Below, one piece after another: positions 3,066-27,666 of a stretch of 64,000 nucleotides of DNA; the stretch's first letter is position 1, and each line of letters starts with the position of its first letter. The notes under the pieces are model-generated. The model worked only from the letters and a program-made list of their open reading frames with translations. It had not been told where the DNA came from and did not search any database. Both the position numbers and the translations under genes were made by a program. The DNA comes from a virus: positions 2,550-66,549 of IMG/VR virus record IMGVR_UViG_3300037511_000246, one strand, 5' to 3'.

Positions 3066-3362
3066 ATGAAAGAACTCAAGGTGCTTACTCCATTCGTCTA
3101 CGCAGGAAAACTGCGGAAGAAGGGAGAAAGAATCCGTTCCAGCAATCGATTCGCCACCGTCTTAGTTGCGGTTGGCAAGGTGTCAGAAGTGAAACATGAA
3201 GATCCGCCGCGTCCAAAGACGCGCAGCATGGAACCGCAGAAGGCTTCACGATCGAATCGTGTTGGGCCAAAGCGGCAGAACAGACAGCGTCCCTATCTTC
3301 GCTCCGACATGAGAGCAGATGAGGATTACGAACGCTCCGACTTGACGGTAGGTGACAAGTGA
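3066..3362 (+). CDS. hypothetical basic protein
   Basis: ATG at 3066 has RBS 'agaggtgg'. 98 aa, Arg/Lys-rich. No recognisable domain. Confidence 0.4.
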   Translation: MKELKVLTPFVYAGKLRKKGERIRSSNRFATVLVAVGKVSEVKHEDPPRPKTRSMEPQKASRSNRVGPKRQNRQRPYLRSDMRADEDYERSDLTVGDK

Positions 3363-4978
3363 AAAAGAACTTCCTCGTCAAAGCTTTCGAGAAGCGTGTC
3401 ATGGGACCGCTTGCCAAGAAGTTATTGGACTATCGTCCGATAGATGATCGTAGGGGATGGTGGAAAATCCTCGAACAGTATGCCGGTGCGTGGCAACAGG
3501 ATGTGCAGATCAACCTTAGTACGGTTGACGCGTATTGGGCGAACTTTGCATGCGTGACATTGATTGCGAGCGACATCTCGAAGATGCCGATCAATGTGAT
3601 GCAGTTTGATGAGACCCAGAAGATCTGGATCAAGACAAAGAAGAGGCCGGTTCTCAAGAAGCCTAATCACTACCAGACCACGATCGAGTTCATATTCTCG
3701 TGGATTGTCAGTCAGCTTCGGAATGGCAATACCTATGTCTTGAAGGTTCGTGACCCGCAAGGATTCATCACGAAGTTGTATGTTCTTGATCCGTGGAAGG
3801 TATGCCCACTGATCACAAAAGACGGTGCCATCTATTACCGTCTCGAGGTAGACAATCTTTCTGGCCTGGATGGAGAAGCTTCGATCGTGGTTCCGGCATC
3901 GGAAATTATTCACGATCGAATGTACCCACTCTATCATCCGCTGGTAGGTCTGTCACCGCTATTCGCTTGCGCCATTGCATCTATGCAGGGTGCGGCGATC
4001 ATGAGCACGGCGACGGGCTTCTTCAATAATCGTGGCCTGCCAGCCGGCATCTTGACGGCACCCGGCCACATCCCTGACGATACAGCGGCGCGTCTCAAGA
4101 CGTACTTTGACGACAACTTCACCGGGCAGAACGCTGGCAAGGTGGCCGTCCTCGGAGACAACCTGAAGTTCGAATCGCTGGCATCGAAGGCCGCAGATGC
4201 GCAGTTGATCGAGCAGTTGAAGATGACTGGTGAGATCGTGGCTGCCTGCTACCATGTGCCAGGATATAAGATTGGCGTGGGACAGATGCCGACGGTCAAC
4301 AACACTGCCGCTCTTAATCAGCAATACTACGAGCAGTGCTTGCAGTATCTGGTCGAGAAGATGGAATCACGGCTTGATGATGGCCTGGAGCTCATAGAAG
4401 AGCAGTGCTGGTGCGATACGTCTGTGCTGATGCGCATGGATCCGCAGACTCGCGCGACCGTCATTGGTCAGAAGGTGAAAGACGGCGTTATCTCACCGAA
4501 TGAAGCGCGCCGTGAGGATGATTCTCCGCCCGTTACTGGCGGTGATTTGCCCTACATGCAGCAGCAGAATTACTCGCTGGCAGATTTGGAGCGACGTTCT
4601 CAGCGTGATGCTGCCAAGGGTGAAGAAGGAAACGTTCAGGCGCAAGCGATGAACGGCGCTCAGGTGAGTTCGCTGCAGTCCATTATCACCTCTGTTGCCA
4701 ATGGTGAGATGCCGCCAGAGTCCGCGGCAGCAGCCATCTCAGTCGCGTTCCCACTTCTCACTGAAGCGGAGATCAGTGCGATCATCACGCCATTGAAAAC
4801 ATTCAAGCCGACGCCGACGCCTACTGCGCCATCGGCACCAGCTCCTGCAAATGAACCAGAAGATCCAGAGGGCCAAGATGATGGAACAGCAAAGTCGGTG
4901 GGAGAATTGTTTACCGCCAAAGATATTTCAGCCATGCTCGATGAGCAACTGGCGTCACTCGATGCGGAGGTCGCATGA
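3359..4978 (+). CDS. portal protein, HK97 family
   Basis: 539 aa. Portal-like blocks ('...GNTYVLKVRDPQG...', 'HPLVGLSPL', 'VAACYHVPGYKIGVG'). GTG start overlaps the upstream TGA stop (GTGA). Confidence 0.8.
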   Translation: MKKNFLVKAFEKRVMGPLAKKLLDYRPIDDRRGWWKILEQYAGAWQQDVQINLSTVDAYWANFACVTLIASDISKMPINVMQFDETQKIWIKTKKRPVLKKPNHYQTTIEFIFSWIVSQLRNGNTYVLKVRDPQGFITKLYVLDPWKVCPLITKDGAIYYRLEVDNLSGLDGEASIVVPASEIIHDRMYPLYHPLVGLSPLFACAIASMQGAAIMSTATGFFNNRGLPAGILTAPGHIPDDTAARLKTYFDDNFTGQNAGKVAVLGDNLKFESLASKAADAQLIEQLKMTGEIVAACYHVPGYKIGVGQMPTVNNTAALNQQYYEQCLQYLVEKMESRLDDGLELIEEQCWCDTSVLMRMDPQTRATVIGQKVKDGVISPNEARREDDSPPVTGGDLPYMQQQNYSLADLERRSQRDAAKGEEGNVQAQAMNGAQVSSLQSIITSVANGEMPPESAAAAISVAFPLLTEAEISAIITPLKTFKPTPTPTAPSAPAPANEPEDPEGQDDGTAKSVGELFTAKDISAMLDEQLASLDAEVA

Positions 4979-6396
4979 ACGCTAAAGAGTTACGCGCACT
5001 TCTCGAGCTGATCATGGGAGCTGTCGCGAGACAGCTTCATGGCGTGGTAAAGAGTCTCACAGGACGCTTCGATGCGCTCGAGAAGTCGGTCGGAGAAGTG
5101 CGCGAAGAGGCGCGTCAGATCAAAGAGGCGTCATCGACAACTCTCAAGATCTCAGTCGATTCTGCAGAACTACAACCGCTGATCGTAGAACTTAAGGATA
5201 TGGTAGCGGTTGCTGGCACTGAGTGTAAGGCACATCTCAGCGCTACGATCGAGGAGTGGCATGTCCTGGTGCGTAATGAGTTAGCACAGCAGGCAAAGGT
5301 GAATGGAGAGCTGAAGGGAATCCTCGCAGAGCGCACTGAGCAACTGAAGCCTGAAGAGCTGATGAGGATCGCAGTCTTGGCGCTCCGTAACAGCGATGAG
5401 AATAATGTGCGTGTGCTGACCGAGCTGCTGGCGCAGCGCATTACCGCCGCAGTTGACCCTATCAATCAGAAAATCGCCGAAGCTATGCTGGCAATCGATC
5501 AGTCTGAGACGAGACTGCGAGAGCTGATCAATGAGCTACCGCCAATCGATGAGATTGCGAAGGCGGTATTGCCGCTGATTCCAGAGCCGAAGAACGGCAA
5601 GGACGCTGTAGTACCAACAGAAGACGAGCTACGCAAACTCATCTCAACTGTGCTGACATCATCTGGCTTCAATGACAAATGGATGGAAAGCCTCGTAGAG
5701 AAAGCGGTCAACGCGAGAGCCGATATCGTTCTCAATGAGATGGTGGCTCGTAGCAATGAAGCCGTTGTCAATGCGATCGCGAATATCCGGCAGCCGAAAG
5801 ATGGTGTCGATGGTGTCTCACCAACGGAAGAGCAGGTTCGCAGCTACCTCGAGACCATTGTTGGAACGCGTATTCCAACGCTGGAGCAGCTACAGAAGAT
5901 GGCTGCAGAAACTTTCGAATCTCAGATGAACAAGTGGGCTCTTGAGTTCGAACGCCGCGCACAAGATGTTCTACAGCGAGCCATTGATCGTATGCCAGTG
6001 CCAAAAGACGGAAAGCCGGGTCGCGATGCCTTGTCTGTGAAGAACTTCAAAGTAACGCTGTCGGACGATGGTCGTACACTCAGCTTCATACTCGACGATG
6101 GTGAGACACGAGTTGAAGAGTCTGTACCATTTGTCGCATTGAAGTGGCGTGGCTACTTCAAGAGTGGCGAGACTTATTATCCTGGTGATGTTCTTCAGAG
6201 TCGCGGTTCTTCTTTCTTGGCAATCAGGGAGACGAAGGAAGGTCCGACCGAAGCGGCGAACGAAGCTTGGGTGCTCATGGTTAAGGCTGGGCGAGACGGT
6301 AGGAGCGTCAAGGGCGACAAGGGCGACAAAGGAGACAAGGGCGATCCAGGCATTTCCGAGATACCGAACCCACTAAATCCGATGAGAGGTGCATGA
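4975..6396 (+). CDS. head-associated protein with three internal PK(D/N)GxDxV-PTE repeats and a short collagen-like GDK repeat (scaffold/decoration candidate)
   Basis: 473 aa, coiled-coil rich. Three ~25-aa repeats ('PKNGKDAVVPTEDELRKLISTVL', 'PKDGVDGVSPTEEQVRSYLETIV', 'PKDGKPGRDALSVKNFKVTL'). C-terminal 'KGDKGDKGDKGDPG'. Lies between portal and connector. Confidence 0.4.
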   Translation: MNAKELRALLELIMGAVARQLHGVVKSLTGRFDALEKSVGEVREEARQIKEASSTTLKISVDSAELQPLIVELKDMVAVAGTECKAHLSATIEEWHVLVRNELAQQAKVNGELKGILAERTEQLKPEELMRIAVLALRNSDENNVRVLTELLAQRITAAVDPINQKIAEAMLAIDQSETRLRELINELPPIDEIAKAVLPLIPEPKNGKDAVVPTEDELRKLISTVLTSSGFNDKWMESLVEKAVNARADIVLNEMVARSNEAVVNAIANIRQPKDGVDGVSPTEEQVRSYLETIVGTRIPTLEQLQKMAAETFESQMNKWALEFERRAQDVLQRAIDRMPVPKDGKPGRDALSVKNFKVTLSDDGRTLSFILDDGETRVEESVPFVALKWRGYFKSGETYYPGDVLQSRGSSFLAIRETKEGPTEAANEAWVLMVKAGRDGRSVKGDKGDKGDKGDPGISEIPNPLNPMRGA

Positions 6397-6716
6397 TGCC
6401 ACTTGCAATCATCACGCTAGAAGTAGCGAAGCAGCATCTGCGCCCACCGGGCACCATTGACGATGCGCGTATCGAACGCATGATGGATGAGGCCAGCGCG
6501 ATTGTGCTGGACTACATCAAGCTGCCATACGATTCATATCATGATACGAATGGCGAGCTTGTCGAAGAGGATGTGCCGCCTCCAGTGCGTGCTGCGACGT
6601 TACTTGTTCTTGGAGCGTTGTATGACAATGCGGATGGTCAGAACCCGGACAAGCAGCCACTCTCTGATGCAGCGAAAGCGCTTCTTCACACGCGGAGAGT
6701 ACCGACCCTTGCTTAA
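6393..6716 (+). CDS. head-tail connector protein, gp6-like
   Basis: N-terminus 'ITLEVAKQHLR...DDARIERMMDEASAIVLDYI' matches the gp6-like head-tail connector family signature. ATGA overlap with the upstream gene. Confidence 0.7.
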   Translation: MMPLAIITLEVAKQHLRPPGTIDDARIERMMDEASAIVLDYIKLPYDSYHDTNGELVEEDVPPPVRAATLLVLGALYDNADGQNPDKQPLSDAAKALLHTRRVPTLA

Positions 6717-7329
6717 CAAGTCTACGAACCGGATAGCTAAGTGGGCTGGACAGACTGTTGTCTGCGTCGCCTCTGGCCCATCGTTGACTAAAGAAGATGT
6801 GGACTTTGTGAAGGGTAAGGCGAAGGTCATAGTTGTGAACCGTGAGTTTGCGATGGCACCTTGGGCCGATGCTTGCTACGCTGCTGACTACAGATTTTGG
6901 AAGACATACCTGCCGAAGATCAAGGAAGCATCCTTCGCTGGTGAACTTTGGACAATGAGTGTGCAGGCTCGTAAAGAGTTTGGGATCAATTGCATCGGAC
7001 GTTCTAATGCCGATGGCTACTCTATGATCCAGCACAGCATCACCACTGGTGGCAACAGCGGTTATCAAGCTATCCATCTCGCTGCTTACTGGGGAGCATC
7101 TAGGATAGTGCTTCTCGGGTATGACATGCAGCGCACCTTCAATCGGGACCACCATTTTGGAAAGCATGATGGCGGTCTACCGAACGGTAGAGGGTTTCCT
7201 TTCTGGATCAGACGGTTCAAGCCACTGATCAAAGATCTCGAAGTTCTTGGGGTCAAGGTTGTCAATTGCTCGCGCCACACTGCTATCACATGCATACAGC
7301 GCAAGCCTTTAGCGGAGATAGTCTGGTGA
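6667..7329 (+). CDS. DUF115/Maf-like (MptE-like) putative glycosyltransferase
   Basis: 'VVCVASGPSL...KVIVVN...GGNSGYQAIHLAAYWGASRIVLLGYDM' resembles the conserved core of motility-accessory-factor/DUF115 proteins. Start inferred at the first ATG after the connector stop; uncertain. Confidence 0.4.
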   Translation: MQRKRFFTRGEYRPLLNKSTNRIAKWAGQTVVCVASGPSLTKEDVDFVKGKAKVIVVNREFAMAPWADACYAADYRFWKTYLPKIKEASFAGELWTMSVQARKEFGINCIGRSNADGYSMIQHSITTGGNSGYQAIHLAAYWGASRIVLLGYDMQRTFNRDHHFGKHDGGLPNGRGFPFWIRRFKPLIKDLEVLGVKVVNCSRHTAITCIQRKPLAEIVW

Positions 7330-7397
7330 GAATAAACACTAACAGAAGCACCGACGTCGCGCGAATACTTGCAGCGAGATTGTCTGCAGATCGCGAC

Positions 7398-8063
7398 ATG
7401 ATGAATATGAAGCGCTTCAAGAGATATCGCCCAGACTGGGATTGGAAGGGCATCATTGGTAGCGCAGCCTGTATCAAGTGGAGCTTCAGAGATCTGGAAA
7501 ACCTTGATGCAGCGCTTGGGCTCTTCTCTGCTCGTAGGCGCGCAGTGCAGGCTGGTGGAAACATCGGTATCTTTGCCAAGCGTCTCGCAGAAGAGTTCCA
7601 AGAGGTTGTGACCTTCGAGCCGGATGCTGGCCTGTTCAAGGCGATGTCCATCAATGCGCCGGAGCGTAACATCGTTCGCCATCAGATGGCTCTTGGAGAC
7701 ATGTCTTGCGGCGTTTCTCTGAGTGCTGAGCGCAGAGACAGCAGTGGTCGGCCCTCTCATGAAGGGCTGACGCACGTTACCGGCGATGGAAATATTCCAA
7801 TGCGCACGCTGGACTCATTCCAGTATGCGTACTGCTCACTGCTATATCTGGACATCGAAGGTTATGAGCTGAAGGCACTTCGGGGTGCGTCTGAAACCAT
7901 CGATCGATGCCGGCCAGTGGTAGGCTTGGAAGTCAATGGATCTTCAGAGTACTACGGTGATAGCGACGAAGCGCTGAGAACCTTCATGCGAGAGAAGCGC
8001 TACGTTCTGAAGTTCACAAGGAACAGTGATGAGATATATCTTCCAGAGGAGTTCACGCTGTGA
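7398..8063 (+). CDS. FkbM-family methyltransferase
   Basis: 'AVQAGGNIGIFA...VVTFEPDAGLF...LLYLDIEGYELKALRG' is the FkbM methyltransferase pattern. Start at the first ATG after the upstream stop; a GTG at 7326 is possible. Confidence 0.6.
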   Translation: MMNMKRFKRYRPDWDWKGIIGSAACIKWSFRDLENLDAALGLFSARRRAVQAGGNIGIFAKRLAEEFQEVVTFEPDAGLFKAMSINAPERNIVRHQMALGDMSCGVSLSAERRDSSGRPSHEGLTHVTGDGNIPMRTLDSFQYAYCSLLYLDIEGYELKALRGASETIDRCRPVVGLEVNGSSEYYGDSDEALRTFMREKRYVLKFTRNSDEIYLPEEFTL

Positions 8064-8800
8064 AGACCGTAGCGACAAAAGAGCAGTATGAGGCCGCTTG
8101 GAAGACCGAAGTCGCCAACGCATATGCGGCGATTGATGCCTATGAGCGTGTGTGCGGATACGCTGTAGACCTGGATTGGCTCAATGGCATTGCGCGCATT
8201 CTCAATTGCCCTGTCAAAGTGAATCCGCCGAACTGGCAGCATGGGCGCGTGCTCTACGCGGCATTGCGGAAGTTCTTAGAGTCCAATGTTGGATTGGCGA
8301 CTGTCAAGTCACCGCGTGCGATTATTGACATTGGCACAGCCAAAGGGTTCAGCGCGAGTGTGATGGCTCGCGCACTGTATGATCATGGCGTGACATGGAT
8401 GCCGGTCTACACTGTTGATGTCATAGACCCAGATGCGCGGGTTATACGCAATACAGTTGCTGAAGTAGATGGTTTGAAGACACTCTACGAAGTGCTTGAT
8501 CCAACGCTACCTGCTGGCGTGCATGTGCAATGCTATGGTCGTGGGTCGCGCGACGTACTCGAGAGGCTGAAGCATGGTGGATACCGTATCCCATTCGCAT
8601 TCGTAGACGGTAAGCATTCTTTCGATGCCGTCAAGTTTGAAGGTGTTGCAATTGCCATGAGACAGCAGGCTGGCGACATGGTGATCTTCGATGATTGTCA
8701 GTTGCCAGAGGTGCGGCGAGCCGTTGAGATTCTCAACATGTATGAGGTATCGTATCTACAGAATGGCCCGCGCACCTATGCTATTGCGAGGCGTCTGTGA
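8060..8800 (+). CDS. class I SAM-dependent methyltransferase (O-methyltransferase-like)
   Basis: Gly-rich motif I 'IIDIGTAKGFSAS'; acidic 'FVDGKHSFDAV' and 'MVIFDDC' resemble TylF/CmcI-like O-MTases. GTGA start/stop overlap. Confidence 0.55.
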   Translation: MKTVATKEQYEAAWKTEVANAYAAIDAYERVCGYAVDLDWLNGIARILNCPVKVNPPNWQHGRVLYAALRKFLESNVGLATVKSPRAIIDIGTAKGFSASVMARALYDHGVTWMPVYTVDVIDPDARVIRNTVAEVDGLKTLYEVLDPTLPAGVHVQCYGRGSRDVLERLKHGGYRIPFAFVDGKHSFDAVKFEGVAIAMRQQAGDMVIFDDCQLPEVRRAVEILNMYEVSYLQNGPRTYAIARRL

Positions 8801-9456
8801 TTACCGTTGCTTGTGTGTATGTGCAGGGACATGTCGCGTTCACTCGTGAATATGTTCTGCGGCTGCGATCTATGGTCGCGCGGTATCTTTCGAGAGACCA
8901 CAGCTTTGTGTGCCTCACAGACAAGCCGCACCAGTTCAAAGATACGGACATCAAGGCCGTAGAAATCTCGAGACCGATGTATGGGATGTTTGGATGGTGG
9001 AGCAAGCTGCACCTCTTCGATGACTCTATTGCTGAACTGCAGAGCGGGCGCTGCATGTACTTGGACTTGGACACTCTCGTCCTGAAGACGCTCGATGTGG
9101 TAGTAGATTATCCATCACCATTCGCACTGGTGCCAGACGATGCTCCAAACTTCAGGGGCAAGATGGGGCGGCTGACAGTAAAGAAGTTCAATTCATCAGT
9201 GATGGTGTGGAATGGCGGAGAGCAGAACGCGCTCTACAATGATTTCAGGGTCGCTGTCAGTCACAGGTTGTGGGGTGACCAGGATTGGATTGGTGAGAAA
9301 GTTCCAACTGCCGACAGGATGCCTCTAGAATGGTTTCCGCGTGTATCTCAGTGCATCGCCGCTCCACCACCGGCTGCAAGAGTGGTGCTGTGCAAGAAGC
9401 CTAAGAACTATGAAGCGGCGAAAGAAATTCCTTGGGTCAGGGAGGCGTGGCAGTAA
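8797..9456 (+). CDS. nucleotide-sugar transferase-like protein (DxD motif), paralog of 10205..10939
   Basis: 'CLTDKP', 'YLDLDTLVL' (DxD) and 'VMVWNGGEQ...WGDQDWI' are shared with the downstream paralog. GT8-like character. GTGA overlap. Confidence 0.4.
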   Translation: MITVACVYVQGHVAFTREYVLRLRSMVARYLSRDHSFVCLTDKPHQFKDTDIKAVEISRPMYGMFGWWSKLHLFDDSIAELQSGRCMYLDLDTLVLKTLDVVVDYPSPFALVPDDAPNFRGKMGRLTVKKFNSSVMVWNGGEQNALYNDFRVAVSHRLWGDQDWIGEKVPTADRMPLEWFPRVSQCIAAPPPAARVVLCKKPKNYEAAKEIPWVREAWQ

Positions 9457-10208
9457 TGGGCGCACCTGGATTCGACGATGCCCCGCTTTGGACGACAATG
9501 AAAGCGTCGCTGCCTAAGAAGATTACGCTTGTCTATCCATACTATGACAATGCGCTGTTCTTGCACCATCAGTTGGAAGGCTGGCGCGCATTGCCTGACC
9601 ACATCCGAGACTGGCTGCGCATTATCATTGTTGATGATGGTTCTCCAAACATCCAGGCGAGGTCTGTGGTTGGATCGAGCCAGTGGCCTTTCGATGTCTC
9701 AGTGTACCGTATCGAAGTAGATATTCGATGGAACTGGCTGGCGGCAAGGAACATAGGTATGAACCATGCTGAAGAAGGATGGTGCGTGCTTACTGACATG
9801 GACCATGTCATTCCACAAGACACGTTCGACAGACTTCTTTATCGTTGGTACAATGAGAACATCATCTACAGGTTCAGTCGCCGTGAGCACACTGGTCAGT
9901 TGATACATCCGCATCCGAATTCGATGTTCATGACCAAGTCAATGTTCTGGAAGATTGGAGGGTATGATGAGGCATTGTCCGGTCACTATGGTACAGATGG
10001 TGACTGGCGCCGACGGTGCGCCGCTACTGCTTCAGTCAGAACCCTGCCGCACGAGCTCATCCGGCATGAGTATCAGCAGGACAGTTCTACGACATCGTAT
10101 CTGCGAAAGCAGCCGGAAGATGCAGGTAAGAAGGCGATCATTGCAAAGCGTGGGCCATCGTGGAAACCTCGGACACTGAGCTTTCCATATCACAAGGTGG
10201 AACTGTGA
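9456..10208 (+). CDS. family 2 glycosyltransferase
   Basis: 'LRIIIVDDGSP', 'ARNIG' and 'LTDMDHV' are GT2 (GT-A) hallmarks. No TM segment. RBS 'gggagg'. ATG overlaps the upstream TAA. Confidence 0.65.
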   Translation: MGAPGFDDAPLWTTMKASLPKKITLVYPYYDNALFLHHQLEGWRALPDHIRDWLRIIIVDDGSPNIQARSVVGSSQWPFDVSVYRIEVDIRWNWLAARNIGMNHAEEGWCVLTDMDHVIPQDTFDRLLYRWYNENIIYRFSRREHTGQLIHPHPNSMFMTKSMFWKIGGYDEALSGHYGTDGDWRRRCAATASVRTLPHELIRHEYQQDSSTTSYLRKQPEDAGKKAIIAKRGPSWKPRTLSFPYHKVEL

Positions 10209-10939
10209 GCGAAGTGCTTGACATCGTTTGCTGGAAGTGGAAGCCTGACCGGCCATACCGCAGCACCTACAATGGTGAGGCTGTGAACGTGCTTCGCAAT
10301 ATGGTGGCGCGTAACTACAGTGGCCCACACAGATTCTCATGCATCACTGATGATGCCAGTGGAATCGACCAAGCGATACGCGTGATACCTATTCGCGATG
10401 TGCACAAGGACGTGAGCAACCCGTCTAACAAGTCAAACCCTTCTTGCTACCGTCGTCTGTGGGCGTTCAGTGATGAGGCAAGGGCAGTCATTGGAGACCG
10501 CTTTGTATCGCTCGATCTTGACGTTGTCATCACAGGAAATCTGGATACGATGTTCAATCGTACAGAAGACTTTGTGATATGGGGTGGGCAGGCGCTTGGT
10601 CCTGGCAGACTTGGGTCTTATAACTGGTACAACGGCAGTCTGTGGATGCTGCGCGCAGGGACCAGAACCAAAGTATGGACAGAGTTCAATCCAGCTACCT
10701 CACCGCAAAAGGCACACGCGGCCGGATGCCGTGGGTCAGACCAAGGCTGGATCGCTCACTGTCTTGGACCAAAGGAAGCACGCTTCTCAGAAGGAGTTTA
10801 CTCTTTCAGGAATCATGTGATGCCAAACAAGGGTCGTCTGTTCAAAGATTCGAAGATCGTGATATTTCATGGTCGTCACGATCCATGGAACCCGGCTGTA
10901 CAGTTGCAGTATCCGTGGATTAAGGAGCACTACCGATGA
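10205..10939 (+). CDS. nucleotide-sugar transferase-like protein (DxD), paralog of 8797..9456
   Basis: 'CITDDASG', 'FVSLDLDVVI', 'SLWMLRAG...GSDQGWI' parallel the upstream paralog. RBS 'aggtgg'; GTGA overlap. Confidence 0.4.
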   Translation: MSEVLDIVCWKWKPDRPYRSTYNGEAVNVLRNMVARNYSGPHRFSCITDDASGIDQAIRVIPIRDVHKDVSNPSNKSNPSCYRRLWAFSDEARAVIGDRFVSLDLDVVITGNLDTMFNRTEDFVIWGGQALGPGRLGSYNWYNGSLWMLRAGTRTKVWTEFNPATSPQKAHAAGCRGSDQGWIAHCLGPKEARFSEGVYSFRNHVMPNKGRLFKDSKIVIFHGRHDPWNPAVQLQYPWIKEHYR

Positions 10940-11037
10940 ACAAGAAGACACAGCAGCGCAAGCCTTGTCAGGTGTGCATGCGCACCAGAAAGGTTCTGCG
11001 TCGTGTATTCAGAATTCCTGAGAGGGCAAAGAAGTGA
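10936..11037 (+). CDS. possible 33-aa basic CxxC peptide (not in ORF track)
   Basis: ATGA overlap with the upstream stop and GTGA overlap with the downstream start (coupling pattern). 'MNKKTQQRKPCQVCMRTRKVLRRVFRIPERAKK'. Confidence 0.25.
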   Translation: MNKKTQQRKPCQVCMRTRKVLRRVFRIPERAKK

Positions 11038-11408
11038 CTCAAGCAGGGCAGTTCAGACACGTGATTGAGATTCAGGCTCCGTCTGAAGAACAAGATACGT
11101 CTGGGCAAATGGAGACTTCGTTCTCAACCATCTACGAAGATATTCGCGCTGAGATAGTGCCGTTGTCAGGCCGAGAGTACATTGCGGCTCGACAGGTCGT
11201 TGCGGACGTGACAACGCGCATCAACATTCGTAGGTTGCCATTGGTGACTGCGAACTGCCGTATCCTTCGCACAATTGAGGATGACAGTCCGCCGACCGTA
11301 GAAGTCTACGATGTGCTGGCTGTATTGCCAGACCCAGTCAGCGGGTTGCGTTACATGAACTTGATGTGTGTGCAGCGCATCGCAGAGGGGTTCCGCCGTG
11401 GCGAATGA
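11034..11408 (+). CDS. head closure / head-tail adaptor protein (gp7-like, Phage_H_T_join)
   Basis: 124 aa. '...IRAEIVPLSGREYIAARQV...RINIRRLP...CRILR' fits the head-tail joining family. Position after the connector module. Confidence 0.6.
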   Translation: MTQAGQFRHVIEIQAPSEEQDTSGQMETSFSTIYEDIRAEIVPLSGREYIAARQVVADVTTRINIRRLPLVTANCRILRTIEDDSPPTVEVYDVLAVLPDPVSGLRYMNLMCVQRIAEGFRRGE

Positions 11409-13472: not shown

Positions 13473-15271
13473 CAGATCTGGCAAAACTCGTCGTCAAGCT
13501 TGAGGCGCAGACTGCGCAGTTCTCGCAGCAGCTTGATATGATGACGAAGAAACTGAACACCTTCGATTCAGTTGCTAAGGGCATTGTCAAGAGCGTCGCT
13601 GGTGCCTTCGCTGGCTTCCAGGTACTGTCGTTTGCCAAGAGCGTCATTGACACAGCAGACCACATCAATGACATGTCGAAGACTCTTGGCGTGGCAGTCG
13701 AGGATTTGTCAAGGCTGCAATATGCAGCTGAGCAGTCAGGGACAGACTTGGATTCTCTTGGCGTAGGTCTGAAGAAACTTGCGAAGGCAGCGTCAGAAGC
13801 GGCTGGCGGCAGTAAGGAACAGAAGGAAGCATTCGATGATATAGGCGTCGCTGTTACAGATGCCAGTGGCAAGCTCAAGCCGATGCAGCAGATTCTGCTT
13901 GAGGTGGCCGAGAAGTTTTCCAACATGGAAGACGGCGCTGAGAAGGCAGCAGAGGCGCAGAAGATCTTTGGTAAAGCTGGCGCTGATCTCATTCCGTTGT
14001 TGAACGAAGGAGCTGCCGGTGTCCAGGCTTTGATGGATCAGGCAGACGCTCTTGGCATAACCTTGTCTACTGAGACTGCACAGGCTGCTGACGAGTTCAA
14101 TGATTCGCTGAATACGATGAAGGCGAACGCCATCGGAACGGCGCGTACCATCGTAGGTGTGCTGCTGCCAGCGTTGACAGCACTGTCCAAGGGTCTGAAC
14201 TCTATAGCGAGCGGCGCGGTATTTGTCTTCCAGACTATCGGTAAGGACATTGGCGCACTATCGGCGTCTGCTGTCACAGCAGTGCAGGGAGACTTCGCCA
14301 AGGCTGGTAAGATTCTGGATATGCGCAATGCTGACTTCGAAGCAGAAGCGCAGAGGTTCGCTGATAAGATCAACGGTATCTGGGAAGGCGTCAATATCTC
14401 TGAGGGTATCGACAAGCAGCTCAACACAGTTCTGTCAGAGGTGAAAGTCACCGCGAAGAAGATCGGCGATACTCTGAACAACAAGTTCAAGTTCGTAGGT
14501 CTTGAAGACATTCACATCAATGCTCAAAAGATCGACGTCTCTCCAATGGAGAACTTCTATAAAGAGCTCGACGATCTTACGCAGACATCGACCGAGAAGC
14601 AACTGGATCAGCTTGCCAAGATTGAGTCGGCGCTCAATGAGCTACAGGCAGCCCATCGTATCACCGCAGAAGAAGCCGCAAAGCGTTGGTCAGAAGCGCT
14701 TGATAGTGTACTTGATGAGGTTAAGGTAACGGCCAAGAAGGTCGGACCTGAGATCATGAAGGAATTCGACAAGGTCAATGAATATCAGCTTGAGCTCGCT
14801 CGCAACACTCAGGACATCATTGCGGACACGTTGGTGAACGGGTTCGATCATGGTGTCAAGGGTATGCTGAAGGCATTCGAAGATATGCTCACCAAGCTCG
14901 CAGCGCAAGCTGTCGCTGCTGATATTGGAAAGTATATATTTGGAAACATCGGTGCTGGCGGAACTGCCCCCGGTGGAAAGCTCGGCGGTCTGTTTGGAAA
15001 AGGCATGGACCTACTGAGCGGTCTGTTCGGCGGAACAAAGGACAGTGGTGGTCGTGGCAGTGCTGGTTCTGCGTACATGATTGGCACTGGCGCGCAGCCT
15101 GAGATGTTCGTTCCAGACTCTGCCGGCACCTTCTATCCGCGTGATCAGTGGTCGGGCGGCAATGGTGGTGTCAATAACTGGTACATACAAGGAACGGTTA
15201 GCGAGCAGACGCGTAGACAGCTAGATCTAGACGCACAACGTCGTCAACGTCAAGCATTGAGGTTCGTCTAA
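13469..15271 (+). CDS. tape measure protein
   Basis: 600 aa, alpha-helical/Ala-rich with a Gly-rich C-terminus. Canonical position after G/GT. Confidence 0.8.
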   Translation: MTDLAKLVVKLEAQTAQFSQQLDMMTKKLNTFDSVAKGIVKSVAGAFAGFQVLSFAKSVIDTADHINDMSKTLGVAVEDLSRLQYAAEQSGTDLDSLGVGLKKLAKAASEAAGGSKEQKEAFDDIGVAVTDASGKLKPMQQILLEVAEKFSNMEDGAEKAAEAQKIFGKAGADLIPLLNEGAAGVQALMDQADALGITLSTETAQAADEFNDSLNTMKANAIGTARTIVGVLLPALTALSKGLNSIASGAVFVFQTIGKDIGALSASAVTAVQGDFAKAGKILDMRNADFEAEAQRFADKINGIWEGVNISEGIDKQLNTVLSEVKVTAKKIGDTLNNKFKFVGLEDIHINAQKIDVSPMENFYKELDDLTQTSTEKQLDQLAKIESALNELQAAHRITAEEAAKRWSEALDSVLDEVKVTAKKVGPEIMKEFDKVNEYQLELARNTQDIIADTLVNGFDHGVKGMLKAFEDMLTKLAAQAVAADIGKYIFGNIGAGGTAPGGKLGGLFGKGMDLLSGLFGGTKDSGGRGSAGSAYMIGTGAQPEMFVPDSAGTFYPRDQWSGGNGGVNNWYIQGTVSEQTRRQLDLDAQRRQRQALRFV

Positions 15272-15867
15272 TGTTTATCGAAGAAAGAATTCTTGAGTGC
15301 GTCACGTTTGGCACAGCGATGGCGCCGACATGGCGGACGCGTAAGATTGCACTGAAGTCTGGCATCATGCGCAGAAATGCCATGCGGTCACGACCGTTGT
15401 ATCGGCTGACGCTCCAGTATAGAAACCTCGACCCAGATCGGCATGCAGAAGTGATCAATGCGTTCAACGCATGCATGGGTGGCGTACATAGCTTCCGTGT
15501 CAAGGATTGGTCAGACTTCACTGCTGATGATGAACTGCTGCCGGTGCTAGGTACTGGTGCGCCACAGTCAGTGCAGCTGATCAAGACCTATGCGTTTGGA
15601 AACGTAGAATTGGCGAGGTCGATCAGGAAGCCAGTAGCATCGACAGTGGTGGTAACAGCGAACGATGTGCCAATCTCAGCCTCGATCAGCACTGTTGGCG
15701 TAGCTACATTCACCGCAGCGTCTTCAGCGATTCTTAGGTGGAGTGGTGAATTCGATGTGCCGATGATGTTCGAGCAAGACGAGCTTCCGTTTACTGGTGA
15801 CGACAAAGGTCGCAATGGTCTGTTTCTGACAGGAGATGTTCCGCTGATCGAGGACATAGACGTATGA
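15271..15867 (+). CDS. distal tail protein (DUF2460 / TIGR02217, GTA g12-like)
   Basis: 198 aa. Character and position immediately after the TMP. Followed by a BR0599-like gene and a peptidase, as in RcGTA-like tails. Confidence 0.6.
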   Translation: MFIEERILECVTFGTAMAPTWRTRKIALKSGIMRRNAMRSRPLYRLTLQYRNLDPDRHAEVINAFNACMGGVHSFRVKDWSDFTADDELLPVLGTGAPQSVQLIKTYAFGNVELARSIRKPVASTVVVTANDVPISASISTVGVATFTAASSAILRWSGEFDVPMMFEQDELPFTGDDKGRNGLFLTGDVPLIEDIDV

Positions 15868-16838
15868 CTGCGATTGGCACAGTTCCAGAAGCGCTGCAAG
15901 ACCACCTTGACACTTCTGCCACTACTACTTGCAGACTGCTGAAGTTCAAGCTGAAGAGTGGCCTAGTGTTTGGGTTGACAACACTAGATGCAGACATTGT
16001 GTATGACGATGCCAGCGGCGATGGCGAGATCACCTACGTTGCAACGAATGGATTTGACCCATCGGCACTCGAAGGAGACATCAACTTCACTGTCGGGAAC
16101 GGCGAAGGCAATGCTCTGTTGAGCAATCCGATTCCTGGTATTACTGAAGAGATGATCCGCGCCGGTGAGATGGATGATGCTACGTGGGTTTGCTACCTTG
16201 TGAACTATAAAGCCATCGGCGACAGTCCTGGCAACGAGCACTTCATACTTGATGCTGGCGACGTCGGTCAGGTGAGAATCAAGTATGGCATGCTGTGGAT
16301 GCCTGAGCTTCTGAGCTATGTGATGCGTCTCAAGCAGCCGATCGGCAGTGTGTGGAGCAGAAAGTGCCGTGCCATATTTGGATCGTCGCCAAGTTCTCAG
16401 ACTGGCTGTGGCATTGACGTCACTTCTTTGTGGGTCGCTGGCTCAGTGTCATCTGTTGGCGGAGAGACAGATCGAACATTCACTGGCAGTGCTGTCGCTA
16501 CGCTACCGGCCACCAATTATCCTGCACGAGTACAGTTCTTGACTGGTGACAATGCTGGCCGAGAGTTCGCAGTCGAAGAAGTCAATGGTCTAGTGGTCGA
16601 CCTGATCGAGACTACGCCATATCCGATAGCTCCTGGCGACACATACCGTATGCGCAAGGATTGCCAGAAGCGGTACGAGGAAGACTGCATTGCGATCTAC
16701 AGCAATGGTCCGAACTTCAAAGGCGAGCCGCATATTCCAGTTGGTGATGGTACGCAGAGCCAGACACCATCTGCACAGTTACCCGGCGGAGGTGTGGTGA
16801 CGCACTTGGCTCGAGAGGTGATCGATGACCTCAGTTAA
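15864..16838 (+). CDS. tail hub protein (DUF2163 / 'BR0599' family, GTA g13-like)
   Basis: 'LDTSATTTCRLLKFKLKSGLVFGLTTLDADIVYDD...Y.A..GF' matches the N-terminal signature of TIGR02218-type proteins. Confidence 0.6.
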   Translation: MTAIGTVPEALQDHLDTSATTTCRLLKFKLKSGLVFGLTTLDADIVYDDASGDGEITYVATNGFDPSALEGDINFTVGNGEGNALLSNPIPGITEEMIRAGEMDDATWVCYLVNYKAIGDSPGNEHFILDAGDVGQVRIKYGMLWMPELLSYVMRLKQPIGSVWSRKCRAIFGSSPSSQTGCGIDVTSLWVAGSVSSVGGETDRTFTGSAVATLPATNYPARVQFLTGDNAGREFAVEEVNGLVVDLIETTPYPIAPGDTYRMRKDCQKRYEEDCIAIYSNGPNFKGEPHIPVGDGTQSQTPSAQLPGGGVVTHLAREVIDDLS

Positions 16839-17259
16839 CTGGCAGGCCGACTTCGTGCGAGAAGCGCGGGGATTGATTGGCGTCAAGTGGCGTCACCGTG
16901 GTCGAAAGCCGTGGGCCGTTGACTGCATCGGTCTCATTGCTCTCGCTGCTGAGCGTAGCCATGTTCCATTTGAAGATGAGCGTGGGTATGGTCGCGAGCC
17001 TTGGGACGATCAGATCAGAAAGGGCTGCCGTAAGCGTTGGGGAATGCCGATCGAACGCAGGGATGCGCGTGCCGCTGACATCGCTGTGGTGCGCTGGTAC
17101 AAGGCTGAACCTTCACACTTGGGGATCATAGCTGATCACCCAGATGGCGGTTTGTCGATCATACACGCGCACCTGATACATGGTGTGATAGAGCAAGGGA
17201 TTGACGACAACATGTTAGAGTGCATTGTTGAAGTCTATAGAATCAAGGTGTCACCATGA
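16825..17259 (+). CDS. NlpC/P60 family cell-wall peptidase (tail-associated)
   Basis: Catalytic 'VDCIGLI' Cys and a downstream His ('IIHAHLIHG'). GTA g14-like position. Confidence 0.7.
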   Translation: MTSVNWQADFVREARGLIGVKWRHRGRKPWAVDCIGLIALAAERSHVPFEDERGYGREPWDDQIRKGCRKRWGMPIERRDARAADIAVVRWYKAEPSHLGIIADHPDGGLSIIHAHLIHGVIEQGIDDNMLECIVEVYRIKVSP

Positions 17260-20200
17260 GTCTACGAACAGTTCTCGGCGGTGTAGGCGCTGCGATCGGG
17301 TTCATCTATGGTGGACCATCTGGAGCGCGATGGGGCTTCATGATCGGTTCTACGATCGGAAGTCTCGTAGACCCACAGACCATCCAAGGTCCGAAGATTG
17401 GTGAGATCGCGAACCAGACTGCTCAGGAAGGCGGTCCAAGACCGATTGTGTATGTTCGCAGTCCACCGATGCCGGGTAATGTGATCGATCAGAGTAACCC
17501 GCGCATCGTCAAGAAAAAGAGCGGCGGTAAGGGCGGACCGAAGGTTGTGTCGGAGCAAGTGTTCCGTACCTATGCCATCGGCGTCTGCGAAGGTCCGATC
17601 TCAGGGTTCAGAAGGGTCTGGCGCAACAATGTTCTTGTATACGACGTATCAGAGAACTCTGCGATTAGCGCTGAGGATAACGCGGCCTTCCTAACTAAGG
17701 GACGGTTCTTCCTAGGAACGTTTGATCAGGATGCTAGCCCTGATCTTGAGGCTATCCATGGGGTAGGCACAACGCCATCGTATCGTGGCACTGCATACAT
17801 GGTCATGGCAGACGAGGATCTTACGGATCTTCGTGGTGCTATTCCTCAGTGGATATTCGAAGTAGCGTCAGGGTGCGCCCTAGAGCGTGTGATATTTGAT
17901 GAGAGCGGTGTGTGGAATCGCCCTGACGGTGTTACAAACATCAACCTATTCTTAGTAGGTCCGGGCGGTGAAGGCCGAGGTAACTTCGGAACTGCTACTG
18001 CTGCTGCCGGTGCGCCCGGTGGTGGCGGCGAAGTATTCTATGAGACCAATGTCGATGTCTCTTCTCAGACACAGTGGCGATTGCTCGTTGACAGAGCAGA
18101 TCTAGCGACGCCGGGTGGTGACCCACATGCTCGTACACAGTTTGGACATGGCGACCCAAGTAACTCTACCTTCGTCGAACTTTCATTTGTCCGTGACGGA
18201 AGAACGATAACTTGCGGCGCTAATCAGGGCGGTAGTGGTTATCCTAGCCTCGATCCAAATAACTCTGGCGCTAGTGGTGGTGGTGGCAGCAGGTCCGTGT
18301 TCATATCAACGACTAATCCTCCTGAGTCTAATCGCTATGTTTCTCACAGTGATATTCTACCTCCTGGAGGCGGTGATCCGGGCGGTGCTGGTGGTGAGAG
18401 CCAGTTAGTCACGTTCATCAATCCCAAGATAGGTGATGGAGAGACTGACTTCGCTGGTGTCGCTGGTGGTGGCGGTGGCGCTGGCGGAGCTGGTGCGCCT
18501 GCTACTTCAGGCGGTGCTGGCGCTGGTGGTCCGGGTCTCTACTATGGAAACATCGTTGGTGATGATCTAGGCGACAATGGATGGTTCGGTGGTGGTGGTG
18601 GTGGTGCTGCTGGAGCGAGCCTTTGGGATGAAGATAGTGGCCCACAGATTGCGCAGGGTGCTCCCGGTGGTCTTGGAGGTGGCGGCAATGGCTACGGCTA
18701 CAACTTCGCACAAGTCGCACCATACGGTGGAACTCCAGGACTTGCTGGAAGCGGTGGCGGCGGTGGTGGCGCTGGTGCTGCATTTGAAACGTTCTTCGTT
18801 CCTGGTGGCGCTGGTATCGGCGTAATCCTTTACTGCCCAAGCGGAGCCAACAATCTTTCACTTAAGGACATCGTAACGCAAATCTGTGAGCGAGCTGGAA
18901 TGCCGTCAACGTTAATTGATGTCTCGCTACTGCCAGACGTCAATATCGAAGGTCTGGCAGTAACGAATCAGTATACGGCTGGTGAGATTCTCAGATCACT
19001 TGGGCAAGCTTACCTGTTCGATCCATCACCTCGCGATGGCAAGGTCTGGTTCATACCGAGAGGTGGCAACCATGTTGCTACGGTGGCAGATGCAGACCTT
19101 GTCGATGAAGACGATACACCAGAAGATGATCGTCGAGATGATTCGATCAGCGTGCCAAGAGTGCTGCATCTCAACTATTGGGACGTAGATGGTGGTCTTG
19201 CCACTAGCAAGCAGAGCAGTGAGCGTAGCGGTGATCGTCGAAGTGTAGGTGAGACGTCTATTCAGACACCAGTGTTGATGACTGCAACTCAGGCTGCACA
19301 GAACGTCGTTATCAATCACAAGGTGTTGGCGGAGAATCAGCGCGGTGCTGTCAACCTGACTCTTCCAGACAAGTGGATTGGGCTTAGACTGGCGCATCCA
19401 ATCATCGCTGAGATTGGTGGCGTCAATCATCGTGTGATGATTCAGAAGATGTCGGTGCTTGACGGGTACCAGAAGTATGAGGCTACCTACGATCGGCAGA
19501 GCGCCTACACTTCAAACGTCGAGGGCATCCCCGCTGTTCCACAGACGCCTCCTCCGACTTCCAATGTTGGACCGACGTTAATAATTCCTCTGGACATCCA
19601 GCTCCTTAAAGATAGCGATGACAACGAAGGTCTCATCTACTATGTAGCAGTCGCAGGTATAAGCCCAGCTTGGAGCGGCGCACTAGTAGAGCTCAGTTAT
19701 GATGGTGGCGCGAATTATGTGGATAGTCGAGAAGCCCTTGCATCGTCTATCATCGGTAACTTAGTTGATGATCTGCCGTCTCATCCCAGAGAATATCCAG
19801 ACACTGTACACTCGTTCCGAGTTAGCATCAATCCACCAGATTCTGAGCTTGAAGATGTCGGGCTGTCTGGAATGCAGAACAGGCTTAATCTGGCAGCCGT
19901 AGGCAGCTTAGCTCTTGGATGGGAGCTTATCAATTTCGGTGCGTGTGAGGAAACTACCGCTGATCAATGGGAGCTCAGTAACCTGCTGCGAGGTAGGAAA
20001 GACACGACGCCAAGACTGCACAATGCTGGTGAGAGCTTTGTAATGCTTGATCACAATGTGCTGGGGCTAGTAGTGTCGTCTGTTACAGACATAGGTCGCA
20101 CACTGACTCTGAGAGCTACAAGTCTGGGTGCGCCAGTAGAAACCGGCACAGTGGTCAGCATGACTTATGCAGGCCAGTCTCAGATAGAGCGACACATTGG

Positions 20201-26940: not shown

Positions 26941-27666
26941 CTAGGGCGCGGCAGGCTGGCCGGCTGGCGCTGGCCCGGTGCTGGCGCTGGCCGGCTGTAC
27001 GGGCCGCAGCGTAACCGGGTCCACGGGTATCAGCGGCTCGTCCGCGCCACGGTACAGCATAGCCGGCTTGATGGCTCTGTCGCAGTTCGGGAGGTGTGCG
27101 CCGTTTGCGCCACCACACAGATTGCATGTGATCAGCACAGCCTGAGATGAACGCTCTGCTGGATGCGCATTCGAATCTGTCGCCAGTGGATTCGGTGGAT
27201 CGCCATTGTCCCATTCAACCTCACGAACTTGTCTGTCCAGTTCTGCTGAGAGCACAGCCGGCATCGTTGACGCACGTACCTGGGTCAAGTAAGAATCGAG
27301 TTCAGACAGTGCCATCTCGATATCGGCCTTTGTGCGCCACCAGATGACCAGCTTGGTGATGGTGCCTTGGAAGTAGTCGAGTTTGAACGTCTCAATAATG
27401 GTGTACAGACCAACACCAGACGACAGCCGTGCTTCGTTTGGACGACCATGCGCTTCAATGACTTCGAGATACTTCTCGAGGTAGTGTCTTGACTTCTCGA
27501 GGTCTTGCAACCCATTCTTGTTCCGCCACCTGAACAGGTACTTGGTAATATTACCTTGGAAGTAGTCGAGCGCCAGGATGGCAACCATGTCCCAGTGTTG
27601 CAGATCTGGTTTGCCGTGTGCCTTGTAGTGGTCGCCACCGACTTGTGTTGAGTTCGCGTTGGACAT
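26941..27666 (-). CDS. tandem DUF3310-domain protein with C-terminal Cys cluster and Pro/Ala-rich tail
   Basis: Two repeats of 'LDYFQGnITKyl..W' ('VAILALDYFQGNITKYLFRW', 'FKLDYFQGTITKLVIWW'). 'CNLCGG...LPNC'. RBS 'aggaggaaagtga'. Confidence 0.55.
   Translation of the reverse strand: MSNANSTQVGGDHYKAHGKPDLQHWDMVAILALDYFQGNITKYLFRWRNKNGLQDLEKSRHYLEKYLEVIEAHGRPNEARLSSGVGLYTIIETFKLDYFQGTITKLVIWWRTKADIEMALSELDSYLTQVRASTMPAVLSAELDRQVREVEWDNGDPPNPLATDSNAHPAERSSQAVLITCNLCGGANGAHLPNCDRAIKPAMLYRGADEPLIPVDPVTLRPVQPASASTGPAPAGQPAAP

Follow-up and report, generated by a model that had tools for sequence, protein, structure and literature searches.

A conserved accessory gene cassette of phages at the head-tail joining region with a possible role in the glycosylation and O-methylation of virion proteins

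Archaeal and giant viruses possess their own systems for the glycosylation of their particles, while among phages a virally encoded glycosylation of the virion is, to our knowledge, demonstrated for actinobacteriophages alone, in which it alters immune recognition. A precedent for a methylated virion glycan is provided by the capsid glycosylation of the chlorovirus PBCV-1, whose A064R protein combines two glycosyltransferase domains with a methyltransferase domain; however, PBCV-1 is a eukaryotic giant virus with N-linked glycans, and its enzymes are multidomain fusions without a Maf-like component, unlike the gene cassette considered here. In the actinobacteriophage Corndog, an O-methyltransferase, two glycosyltransferases and a GlcNAc-transferase (gp35-38) are encoded within the structural operon (PMC4351075), and a passage of PMC12619734 that refers to Freeman et al. 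2023 states that mycobacteriophage capsid and tail-tube subunits carry glycans.

The locus described here resembles the systems of Corndog and Che8-type actinobacteriophages in that soluble glycosyltransferases and an O-methyltransferase are encoded among structural genes as late, accessory functions for which a methylated glycan on the particles is proposed. It differs from them in its enzyme set (a Maf-like protein, two GT8-like proteins, a GT2 enzyme, and FkbM and Methyltransf_24 methyltransferases), in its position (portal/protease there, the Ad1/Hc1 junction here), and in the type of host, as the tail genes here resemble those of RcGTA and alphaproteobacterial phages. Furthermore, its capsid and tail-tube proteins show no Ser/Thr-rich C-terminal extension. 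A search of 50,697 phage records by tblastn with genes D, E and F yielded no match in an actinobacteriophage.

In the window (the whole stretch of 64,000 nucleotides that was analyzed), six co-directional genes, A to F, are located between the genes for the Ad1 (gp6-like) connector and the Hc1 (gp7-like) head-closure protein:

6393 to 6716, plus strand: Ad1 head-tail adaptor (gp6-like connector), the upstream boundary (PF05135, E 3.8e-5; phrog_40, E 2e-14)
6709 to 7329, plus strand: gene A, Maf-like/DUF115 (MptE-like) protein with a sialyltransferase fold (preferred start TTG at 6709; alternative ATG at 6667)
7326 to 8063, plus strand: gene B, FkbM-family SAM methyltransferase (PF05050, TIGR01444, phrog_8156)
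8060 to 8800, plus strand: gene C, class I SAM methyltransferase, Methyltransf_24 (PF13578)
8797 to 9456, plus strand: gene D, glycosyltransferase with a GT8 fold (retaining GT-A, DxD), assigned by fold and without a Pfam family
9456 to 10208, plus strand: gene E, soluble GT2-family glycosyltransferase (PF00535, PF10111)
10205 to 10939, plus strand: gene F, GT8-like DxD paralog of D (BLASTP against D; phrog_1962)
10936 to 11037, plus strand: small basic CxxC open reading frame of 33 amino acids, overlap-coupled to F and Hc1
11034 to 11408, plus strand: Hc1 head closure (gp7-like), the downstream boundary (PF05521, E 7.4e-18; phrog_25, E 3.7e-19)

The original prediction had placed six genes (6667 to 10939) between a gp6-like connector and a gp7-like head-closure gene within the late structural operon, several of them linked by GTGA start/stop overlaps. 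All of these elements are present, and together they form a single co-directional, overlap-coupled late gene string. The GTGA tetranucleotide is found at the A/B, B/C, C/D and E/F junctions and again between the small open reading frame and Hc1, while D and E are joined by TAATG, and F and the small open reading frame by ATGA; within this string of structural genes, the cassette shows no enrichment in promoter or terminator signals. Two details of the prediction require amendment. The cassette does not directly abut Hc1, as the overlooked seventh small open reading frame separates F from it, and gene A most likely starts not at ATG 6667 but at TTG 6709, giving an overlap of 8 nt with the end of the Ad1 gene. 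We prefer the latter start because Ad1 and A are arranged in the same way in L148, a relative with 80% identity, because the consensus of the homologs begins there, and because residues 1-20 of the structural model built from 6667 have low pLDDT values.

The family assignments that had been proposed for the six proteins hold throughout. Gene B scores well above the cut-offs of both FkbM models (PF05050, 57.7 bits against 22.7; TIGR01444, 58.7 bits against 37.7) and matches phrog_8156 with an E-value of 3.6e-27, and the class I SAM methyltransferase encoded by gene C belongs to Methyltransf_24 (PF13578, 38.8 bits against a cut-off of 26.3), a membership from which the O-methylation of sugars is a separate question. 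The GT2 enzyme E exceeds the cut-offs of PF00535 (35.0 bits against 23.3) and PF10111 (41.9 bits against 27.3) and, as predicted, has no membrane anchor: it contains no hydrophobic segment (maximum KD19 0.51), and none of the six proteins possesses a hydrophobic 19-mer of the membrane-helix type (maximum Kyte-Doolittle value 1.26). D and F are indeed two paralogous DxD transferases (BLASTP E 2e-9, 25% identity). The predicted structure of D has a GT-A fold with a DxD motif and is closest to GT8 structures, and the F translation contains an LDLD motif. The GT8 family of retaining glycosyltransferases includes LgtC, glycogenin, GlyE of serine-rich-repeat adhesin glycosylation and the Skp1 alpha-galactosyltransferase, but neither D nor F matches Pfam Glyco_transf_8; D has no Pfam match at E <= 0.1, and F matches phrog_1962 (E 3.9e-11) and, below the cut-off and weakly, PF03407 (17.1 bits).

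Maf enzymes are O-glycosyltransferases of a protein, flagellin. The Maf/DUF115 likeness of gene A is borne out by a predicted fold with the sialyltransferase-like central catalytic domain. Its PF01973 match stays below the gathering score (29.8 bits against 34.6) and is confined to a C-terminal motif (residues 120-155); precomputed PF01973 matches exist for many of its orthologs. With 206-220 amino acids (about 200-215 in its homologs), the protein does not have the multidomain architecture of about 600 residues found in flagellin-modifying nonulosonic-acid transferases such as that of Magnetospirillum magneticum (5mu5, 632 residues), whose flanking Maf domains it lacks. Its ties also differ, as phage connector and other structural genes take the place of genes for flagellin or for Pse/Leg biosynthesis; the ORFs of the window that were scanned include no Pse/Leg/Neu synthase.

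Its occurrence in sequence collections shows the cassette to be a conserved accessory module of phages. All six genes are present on 23 distinct IMG/VR contigs, with median identities of 38-60%; A is always the first gene, the order B-C-D-E is invariant and F is movable, and on these full-cassette contigs the module always occupies the junction between Ad1 and Hc1. Identity of the neighbouring head genes can be as low as 22-29%, or the tail genes may be undetectable. Among the 35 portal relatives whose downstream sequence extends over 7 kb or more, two carry the full cassette and 11 carry A with or without extras, while in the other 22 Hc1 directly follows Ad1. This pattern of presence and absence supports the earlier description of the cassette as inserted; the composition of the DNA does not, since it gives no sign of recent foreign origin. 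A single insertion of six genes must, however, be given up, because this very position is often occupied by the Maf-like gene in D3/PAJU2-like phages, which carry the A homolog only (D3 orf7, PAJU2 ORF010). Gene A is the core and most widely distributed member of the cassette. A related cassette (two A-like genes with B-, E- and F-like genes) is found in the same position in 'Tetraselmis viridis virus' S20, whose complete genome measures 39 kb. In variants elsewhere, the additional sugar-decorating enzymes are further methyltransferases, a glycosyltransferase of the GT-D fold in fusion with a methyltransferase and, as a weak match below the Pfam gathering score, a sulfotransferase-like protein.

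The D family is phage-specific and consists of proteins of about 215 amino acids in 542 clusters, nearly all of them metagenomic, among them PmgQ of phage P1. P1 pmgO is a homolog of gene A (34% identity, E 4e-13) and pmgQ of D (hhalign E 3e-16), and, as in the cassette, the two lie in one late operon, pmgL-pmgS, under a late promoter. P1 has only these two of the six enzymes, with pmgP and a Ser/Thr phosphatase between them, and lacks the methyltransferases. Both genes are annotated as 'putative morphogenetic' and are non-essential in the laboratory (PMC10695390), as is expected for a decorating function; on the other side, a keyword search of a paper on the virion proteome of P1 gave no match for pmgO, pmgP or 'glycos'. 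Phage proteins of 685-700 amino acids in BFVD, MptE-like by their UniProt names, also contain a D-like domain, and we read these proteins of uncultured phages as probable A-like/D-like fusions. Together with the shared P1 operon, they suggest that A- and D-type enzymes are functionally linked. A different reading of the same genes denies A, and perhaps others, a transferase function: A would either belong to the virion or its assembly and have a degenerate enzyme fold, or be an MptE-type pyrophosphokinase, with the remaining genes as unrelated morons at a permissive insertion site. We consider this very improbable.

We give even chances to the proposal that the cassette is a late, accessory system for the cytoplasmic glycosylation and O-methylation of virion proteins. 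The enzymes would be co-translated with the head and tail proteins; A and/or the soluble E may prime Ser/Thr residues of a virion protein with nucleotide sugars drawn from the host, whose supply is possibly boosted by the phage, whereupon the retaining GT8-fold enzymes D and F might add alpha-linked hexoses and B and C O-methylate the sugars. Particles with a methylated glycan coat would result, the surface properties, stability or recognition of which could be changed. This proposal is strengthened by the fact that many phage lineages have kept the module at the junction of head and tail genes, by its independence from DNA hypermodification genes, and by folds typical of protein-glycan pathways (Maf; GT8 as in GlyE, Gat1 and glycogenin; GT-D in the variants). 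What counts against it is that neither the major capsid protein nor the major tail protein has an obvious Ser/Thr-rich C-terminal extension as in mycobacteriophages, and that the cassette travels with unrelated head and different tail modules, so that a protein acceptor would have to be loosely recognized or differ between phages. The failure of D, E and F to match any actinobacteriophage sequence also speaks against it.

Among the best structural matches of D are LgtC and WbbM, which act on LOS and O-antigen, respectively, and this points to another possible target: a glycoconjugate of the host envelope (LPS core or O-antigen, capsule, flagellin) modified late in infection, whereby the receptor would be destroyed or masked, and either the loss of progeny on debris avoided or superinfection blocked. 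The GT8 enzymes of the LPS core are likewise soluble or peripheral, Maf proteins act on flagellin, and O-antigen pathways include methyltransferases of the FkbM and other families; furthermore, the movement of the cassette with unrelated virion modules fits a non-virion acceptor. We nevertheless consider such a target unlikely. The D-family profile has a single match among 185,579 bacterial and archaeal species (one genome each); hence, prophages do not carry the cassette, and a lysogen would gain nothing from it. The genome itself looks virulent: it encodes a PolA, a primase-helicase and a ligase of its own, and the 11 minus-strand (early) ORFs of at least 300 amino acids that were scanned include no integrase. 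No flippase, polyprenol-linked initiating enzyme or membrane anchor was found in the cassette, its position is fixed within the head-tail joining genes of many lineages, and its late synthesis would leave scant time for the export of new LPS.

The cassette also does not resemble seroconversion systems of the Gtr type (GtrA/GtrB/GtrX): the proteins have no membrane segments, no integrase is encoded by the 11 scanned minus-strand ORFs of at least 300 amino acids, and the near-absence of the D family from bacteria argues against a lysogenic process.

The same phage carries a DNA glycosylation and hypermodification kit that the original prediction had missed and that constitutes a rival acceptor. 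It occupies about 28.4-34.9 kb of the window and encodes a thymidylate-synthase homolog, a 5-hmdU DNA kinase and two TET-associated glycosyltransferases (TAGT); the modification of DNA with sugars by the same genome counts against virion proteins as the target. In this reading, the cassette would extend and methylate a glycan on the phage DNA, downstream of this cluster; a sugar-1-phosphate nucleotidyltransferase and an NDP-sugar dehydrogenase are also encoded in the window. According to the literature, secondary glycosyltransferases build di- and trisaccharides on DNA, genes for DNA glycosyltransferases are sometimes located near terminase genes, and the modification occurs late, before packaging (bioRxiv 10.1101/2023.12.21.572611; PMC13326640). 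However, about 18 kb separate the cassette from the cluster; it is encoded on the opposite strand, in the structural operon, and shows neither the adjacency to nor the co-occurrence with TAGT and thymidylate-synthase-homolog genes that characterize phage DNA glycosylation clusters. The S20 genome has its related cassette but no thymidylate-synthase homolog, kinase or TAGT; scans of viral contigs for the kinase, ThyA-like protein and TAGT share only the closest relative with the cassette contigs; and the nearest kinase relatives are not among the matches of the D or E scans. P1 and D3/PAJU2 have A or A and D homologs, with hypermodification genes absent from the regions examined. We know of no DNA-modifying enzyme with a Maf/sialyltransferase fold, and in our view a DNA-linked glycan is quite improbable.

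If virion proteins are the acceptors, a more specific proposal can tentatively be made, although we regard it as rather doubtful. The minimal Maf-like enzyme would prime protein glycosylation in a virion-modifying system common to phages of Gram-negative bacteria, and its donor would come from the CMP-activated keto-sugar acids of the host (pseudaminic acid, legionaminic acid or Kdo). P1 (pmgO/pmgQ) and D3/PAJU2 would then represent its minimal version, and the six genes an elaborated version that makes a methylated oligosaccharide coat. Should virion glycosylation by the cassette be true, it would bring this process, with another set of enzymes, to phages whose hosts are of the Gram-negative type, the cassette being part of a large, almost entirely uncultured family with hundreds of protein clusters, and it would offer a testable function for the long-unexplained late genes pmgO and pmgQ of P1, orf7 of D3 and ORF010 of PAJU2. 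A coat of methylated glycan could influence how stable the particles are, how they adsorb and how they fare under grazing or immune clearance, and also how virion proteomics is to be interpreted.

Finally, a peptide with a CxxC motif and rich in Arg/Lys is kept just upstream of Hc1 in L003, L148, L009, L011, L026 and L050, and in L148 the counterpart of the small open reading frame is a called gene of 32 amino acids.

The first 25 kb of the window carry, on the plus strand, a single unbroken string of late genes, into which six enzyme genes (A to F) are set between the genes for the gp6-like connector Ad1 and the gp7-like head-closure protein Hc1:

at the window start, + strand, terminase large subunit, truncated by the window start
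929-1573, + strand, prohead protease
1606-2997, + strand, major capsid protein, followed by a small gene
3359-4978, + strand, portal
4975-6396, + strand, 473-aa coiled-coil/collagen-like protein
6393-6716, + strand, Ad1/gp6-like connector, followed by the six enzyme genes and a 33-aa ORF
10936-11037, + strand, 33-aa basic CxxC ORF (MNKKTQQRKPCQVCMRTRKVLRRVFRIPERAKK), overlap-coupled to F and Hc1
11034-11408, + strand, Hc1/gp7-like head closure
downstream of Hc1, + strand, Neck1, tail terminator, major tail protein, chaperones, tape measure and distal tail genes

The gene identities proposed in the original prediction were borne out by profile, fold or BLASTP evidence: A is Maf/DUF115-like, B an FkbM and C a Methyltransf_24 protein, D a DxD-type transferase, E a GT2 enzyme, and F a paralog of D. 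GTGA start/stop overlaps, predicted for several of the genes, are read directly in the sequence at the A/B, B/C, C/D and E/F junctions, and again between the small ORF and Hc1; the D/E junction reads TAATG and that between F and the small ORF ATGA. The GT2 protein had been described as lacking a membrane anchor, and a membrane-type hydrophobic segment is indeed absent from all cassette proteins. The start of gene A, previously placed at 6667, is most likely the TTG codon at 6709, which would overlap the Ad1 stop by 8 nt; this start is preferred since the same layout is found in an 80%-identical relative and the consensus of the homologs begins there. F and Hc1 are not directly adjacent, because the conserved small CxxC ORF intervenes; a similar CxxC-containing, Arg/Lys-rich peptide is encoded immediately 5' of Hc1 in the relatives L003, L148, L009, L011, L026 and L050. 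Promoter-like and terminator-like sites occur in the scanned sequence at no more than background frequency. GC content offers no support for a recent foreign origin of the cassette.

A megablast search with window positions 3-13 kb against 50,697 phage records matched nothing. Used as queries against IMG/VR, D and E recovered dozens of loci; all six genes are present on 23 distinct contigs, with median identities of 38% (A), 49% (B), 45% (C), 52% (D), 60% (E) and 56% (F); the neighbouring Ad1 and Hc1 proteins are 33-37% identical. On these contigs the order B-C-D-E is invariant, A comes first in every case, and F is placed immediately behind A or at the end. Hc1 may precede, interrupt or follow the block. 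In some carriers, tail genes of the type found here adjoin an unrelated head module (terminase, portal and protease, 22-29% identity), and others combine the PAJU2-like head module with a different tail module. Among 35 portal relatives (44-72% identity, each followed by 7 kb of sequence or more), the full cassette is found in two, A, alone or accompanied by one or two extra genes, in 11, and no cassette gene in the remaining 22, where Hc1 directly follows Ad1. The cassette is a conserved, mobile and accessory module; its genes form a genuine set that is widespread and highly conserved. Variants on other viral contigs have taken up further enzymes for decorating sugars, among them additional Methyltransf_24, _23 and _11 genes; in L052 (5553-6698) and L057 (12721-13401) these are a fusion of a GT-D-fold glycosyltransferase with a SAM methyltransferase, and a weakly sulfotransferase-like ORF scoring below the Pfam gathering threshold. 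Judging from this fusion and the sulfotransferase-like ORF, the glycan decoration seems to diversify between phages. At E <= 1e-5 the D family comprises 542 clusters; the A family is larger, with more than 1000, and almost every cluster of either family is metagenomic and unnamed. A scan with the D profile of 185,579 bacterial and archaeal species, each represented by one genome, gave a single match, to a MAG; the phages that carry the module are therefore non-integrated and mostly uncultured.

The structure of D is predicted with a pLDDT of 96.8 and matches GT8 retaining transferases, namely LgtC (score 17.8), glycogenin (17.1), GlyE (16.9) and the Skp1 alpha-galactosyltransferase (16.9), as well as UGGT. 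D belongs to no Pfam family; its D-x-D motif is invariant, and an LDLD motif is common to D and its paralog F (25% identity). Sequence searches of the PDB with profiles of A and D and with single B, C and E sequences gave spurious or weak matches only, except for that of D to the Skp1 alpha-galactosyltransferase (E 0.009), and an NCBIfam search named only B, plus E weakly. With hhalign, the A profile aligned to an approximate Cst-II sequence solely over the SG...GxD motif (5.5% probability), an alignment to which we give no weight.

Relatives of the cassette genes occur in several cultured phages. At about 40% identity, the structural module resembles that of Pseudomonas phage PAJU2, in which Ad1 and Hc1 are followed by the A-like ORF010, gp11 and the methyltransferase gp12; gp11 has no similarity to the D family. 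The original PAJU2 record (AP009624.1, 3781-4350) labels the Maf-like ORF010 'structural protein', as it does the capsid and major tail proteins. In phage D3, the A-like gene, orf7, follows the capsid gene and precedes Ad1, with gp11 and gp12 homologs after Hc1, and further A-like genes are found in P1/P7, phiNP and jumbo phages of Caulobacter, Brevundimonas, Xanthomonas and Stenotrophomonas. In P1 (NC_005856.1), the late operon LPpmgL encodes the Maf-like A homolog pmgO (3093-3755) and pmgQ (4950-5651), with a Ser/Thr phosphatase gene between them. PmgQ is clearly homologous to the D family, to which hhalign aligns it with 98.7% probability (E 3e-16), and has the motifs CLTD, GWWxK, YLDLDT and WGDQ in common with this family; PmgP has no similarity to it. 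Both pmgO and pmgQ are reported to be dispensable for plaque formation (PMC10695390). The best viral structural matches of D in BFVD are two proteins of uncultured phages annotated as MptE-like, A0A6J5PVH5 (700 aa) and A0A6J7XC21 (685 aa), which we read as natural A-like/D-like fusions, that is, as a Rosetta-stone link. Given this recurrent pairing in P1 and in the putative fusions, A-type and D-type enzymes probably act in one pathway. The complete genome of 'Tetraselmis viridis virus S20' (NC_020840.1), 39 kb long, is that of a siphophage and encodes terminase, portal, protease, tape measure and endolysin. A block of nine glycosyl/methyl-transferase genes (26950-32800) separates its capsid gene from Hc1; two of them are A-like, others resemble B, E and F, and the rest are further glycosyltransferase and methyltransferase genes. 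S20 offers a culturable phage on which the cassette can be tested. Its record is filed as that of an algal virus despite the siphophage genome, and the recorded host is probably wrong.

The closest analogs among known systems are gp35-38 of phage Corndog, an O-methyltransferase, two glycosyltransferases and a GlcNAc-transferase encoded within the structural operon (PMC4351075); the capsid glycosylation machinery of chloroviruses is another. Mycobacteriophage capsid and tail-tube subunits reportedly carry glycans (Freeman et al. 2023, cited in PMC12619734). The cassette is not a member of the actinobacteriophage or chlorovirus systems: D, E and F have no detectable sequence homology to actinobacteriophage glycosyltransferases (tblastn against the 50,697 phage records), the enzyme set, including its Maf-like component, differs from those of Corndog/mycobacteriophages and chloroviruses, and the capsid and tail-tube proteins encoded here, unlike those of mycobacteriophages, have no Ser/Thr-rich C-terminal extension. 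The searchable literature contains no description of this gene set or its function, and a search on DUF115/Maf/sialyltransferase-like proteins in phage virions and on pmgO returned nothing relevant. The function of the cassette is a prediction, and the gene set supplies a specific hypothesis for P1 pmgO/pmgQ as well as D3/PAJU2 orf7/ORF010.

As the leading explanation, held at about even odds, the cassette would encode a cytoplasmic pathway that is co-expressed with the structural proteins and glycosylates and O-methylates proteins of the virion. A and/or E would prime the glycan, D and F would elongate it as alpha-transferases, and B and C would act as sugar O-methyltransferases. Since the cassette travels with unrelated head and tail modules, any recognition of proteins must be loose or variable. 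Ser/Thr-rich termini, sought as an acceptor signature, were not seen in the major capsid or major tail protein. The 473-aa protein encoded directly after the portal gene (4975-6396, + strand), a homolog of PAJU2 gp07, has a C-terminal domain and a collagen-like tail (GDKGDKGDKGDPG) in addition to a long coiled-coil and repeats of the motif P-K-D/N-G-x-D-G; as a possible head-associated fibre, it is a candidate for carrying the glycan. The C-terminal domain has matches at the C-termini of the 'portal protein' PHROGs phrog_1289 and phrog_2271, so that proteins of this type may be fused to the portal in some phages, and it also matches a tail-fibre PHROG. The C-terminal region of the portal itself (~4790-4870, + strand) contains a Pro/Thr/Ala-rich, mucin-like-looking linker (TFKPTPTPTAPSAPAPANEPEDPEG), which is expected to lie inside the capsid.

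DNA has to be weighed as an alternative acceptor, as the minus-strand early region of the same window encodes a hypermodification kit:

28457-29527, - strand, thymidylate-synthase homolog
29524-30237, - strand, sugar-1-P nucleotidyltransferase-like gene
31432-32502 and 32274-33059, - strand, two TET-associated glycosyltransferase (TAGT) paralogs
33911-34894, - strand, 5-hmdU DNA kinase (PF18723, E 4e-60)
56120-56965, minus-strand early region, NDP-sugar dehydrogenase-like ORF

From these genes, it is very probable that the phage hypermodifies its DNA, perhaps with the involvement of sugars, and published work describes DNA-glycan chemistry as late and secondary glycosyltransferases as able to extend DNA glycans (bioRxiv 10.1101/2023.12.21.572611; PMC13326640). 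Against such a role of the cassette, S20 carries a related block and no gene of the hypermodification kit; when viral contigs were scanned with the kinase, the TAGT or the ThyA homolog, the only cassette contig recovered was that of the closest relative, and the nearest kinase relatives are absent from the D and E scan results. The cassette is distributed independently of the hypermodification cluster. Because these co-occurrence scans were pattern-seeded and non-exhaustive, we still grant DNA a slim chance of being the acceptor.

Modification of the host envelope is somewhat less improbable, albeit unlikely. LOS/LPS is a substrate of GT8 enzymes, LgtC for example, which are, like the cassette proteins, soluble or peripheral. 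Against a seroconversion-type role speak the near-absence of the cassette from the bacterial genomes scanned with D, the lack of a flippase or lipid-linked initiating enzyme, and the cassette's fixed place inside the connector genes. Moreover, the genome appears to be that of a virulent phage: genes for its own PolA, primase-helicase and ligase are present, and the 11 scanned minus-strand ORFs of at least 300 aa include no integrase. Late receptor masking would be compatible with all these points. As to the host, the single MAG match of the genome scan does not allow it to be named, and a search for tRNA genes found none. The distal tail genes (15271-21407, + strand; 16528-20660 in the 80%-identical relative, L148) encode DUF2460, phiJL001 Gp84_N, BR0599 and Rcc01698_C domains of the RcGTA/alphaproteobacterial-phage type, which hint at an alphaproteobacterium-like host.
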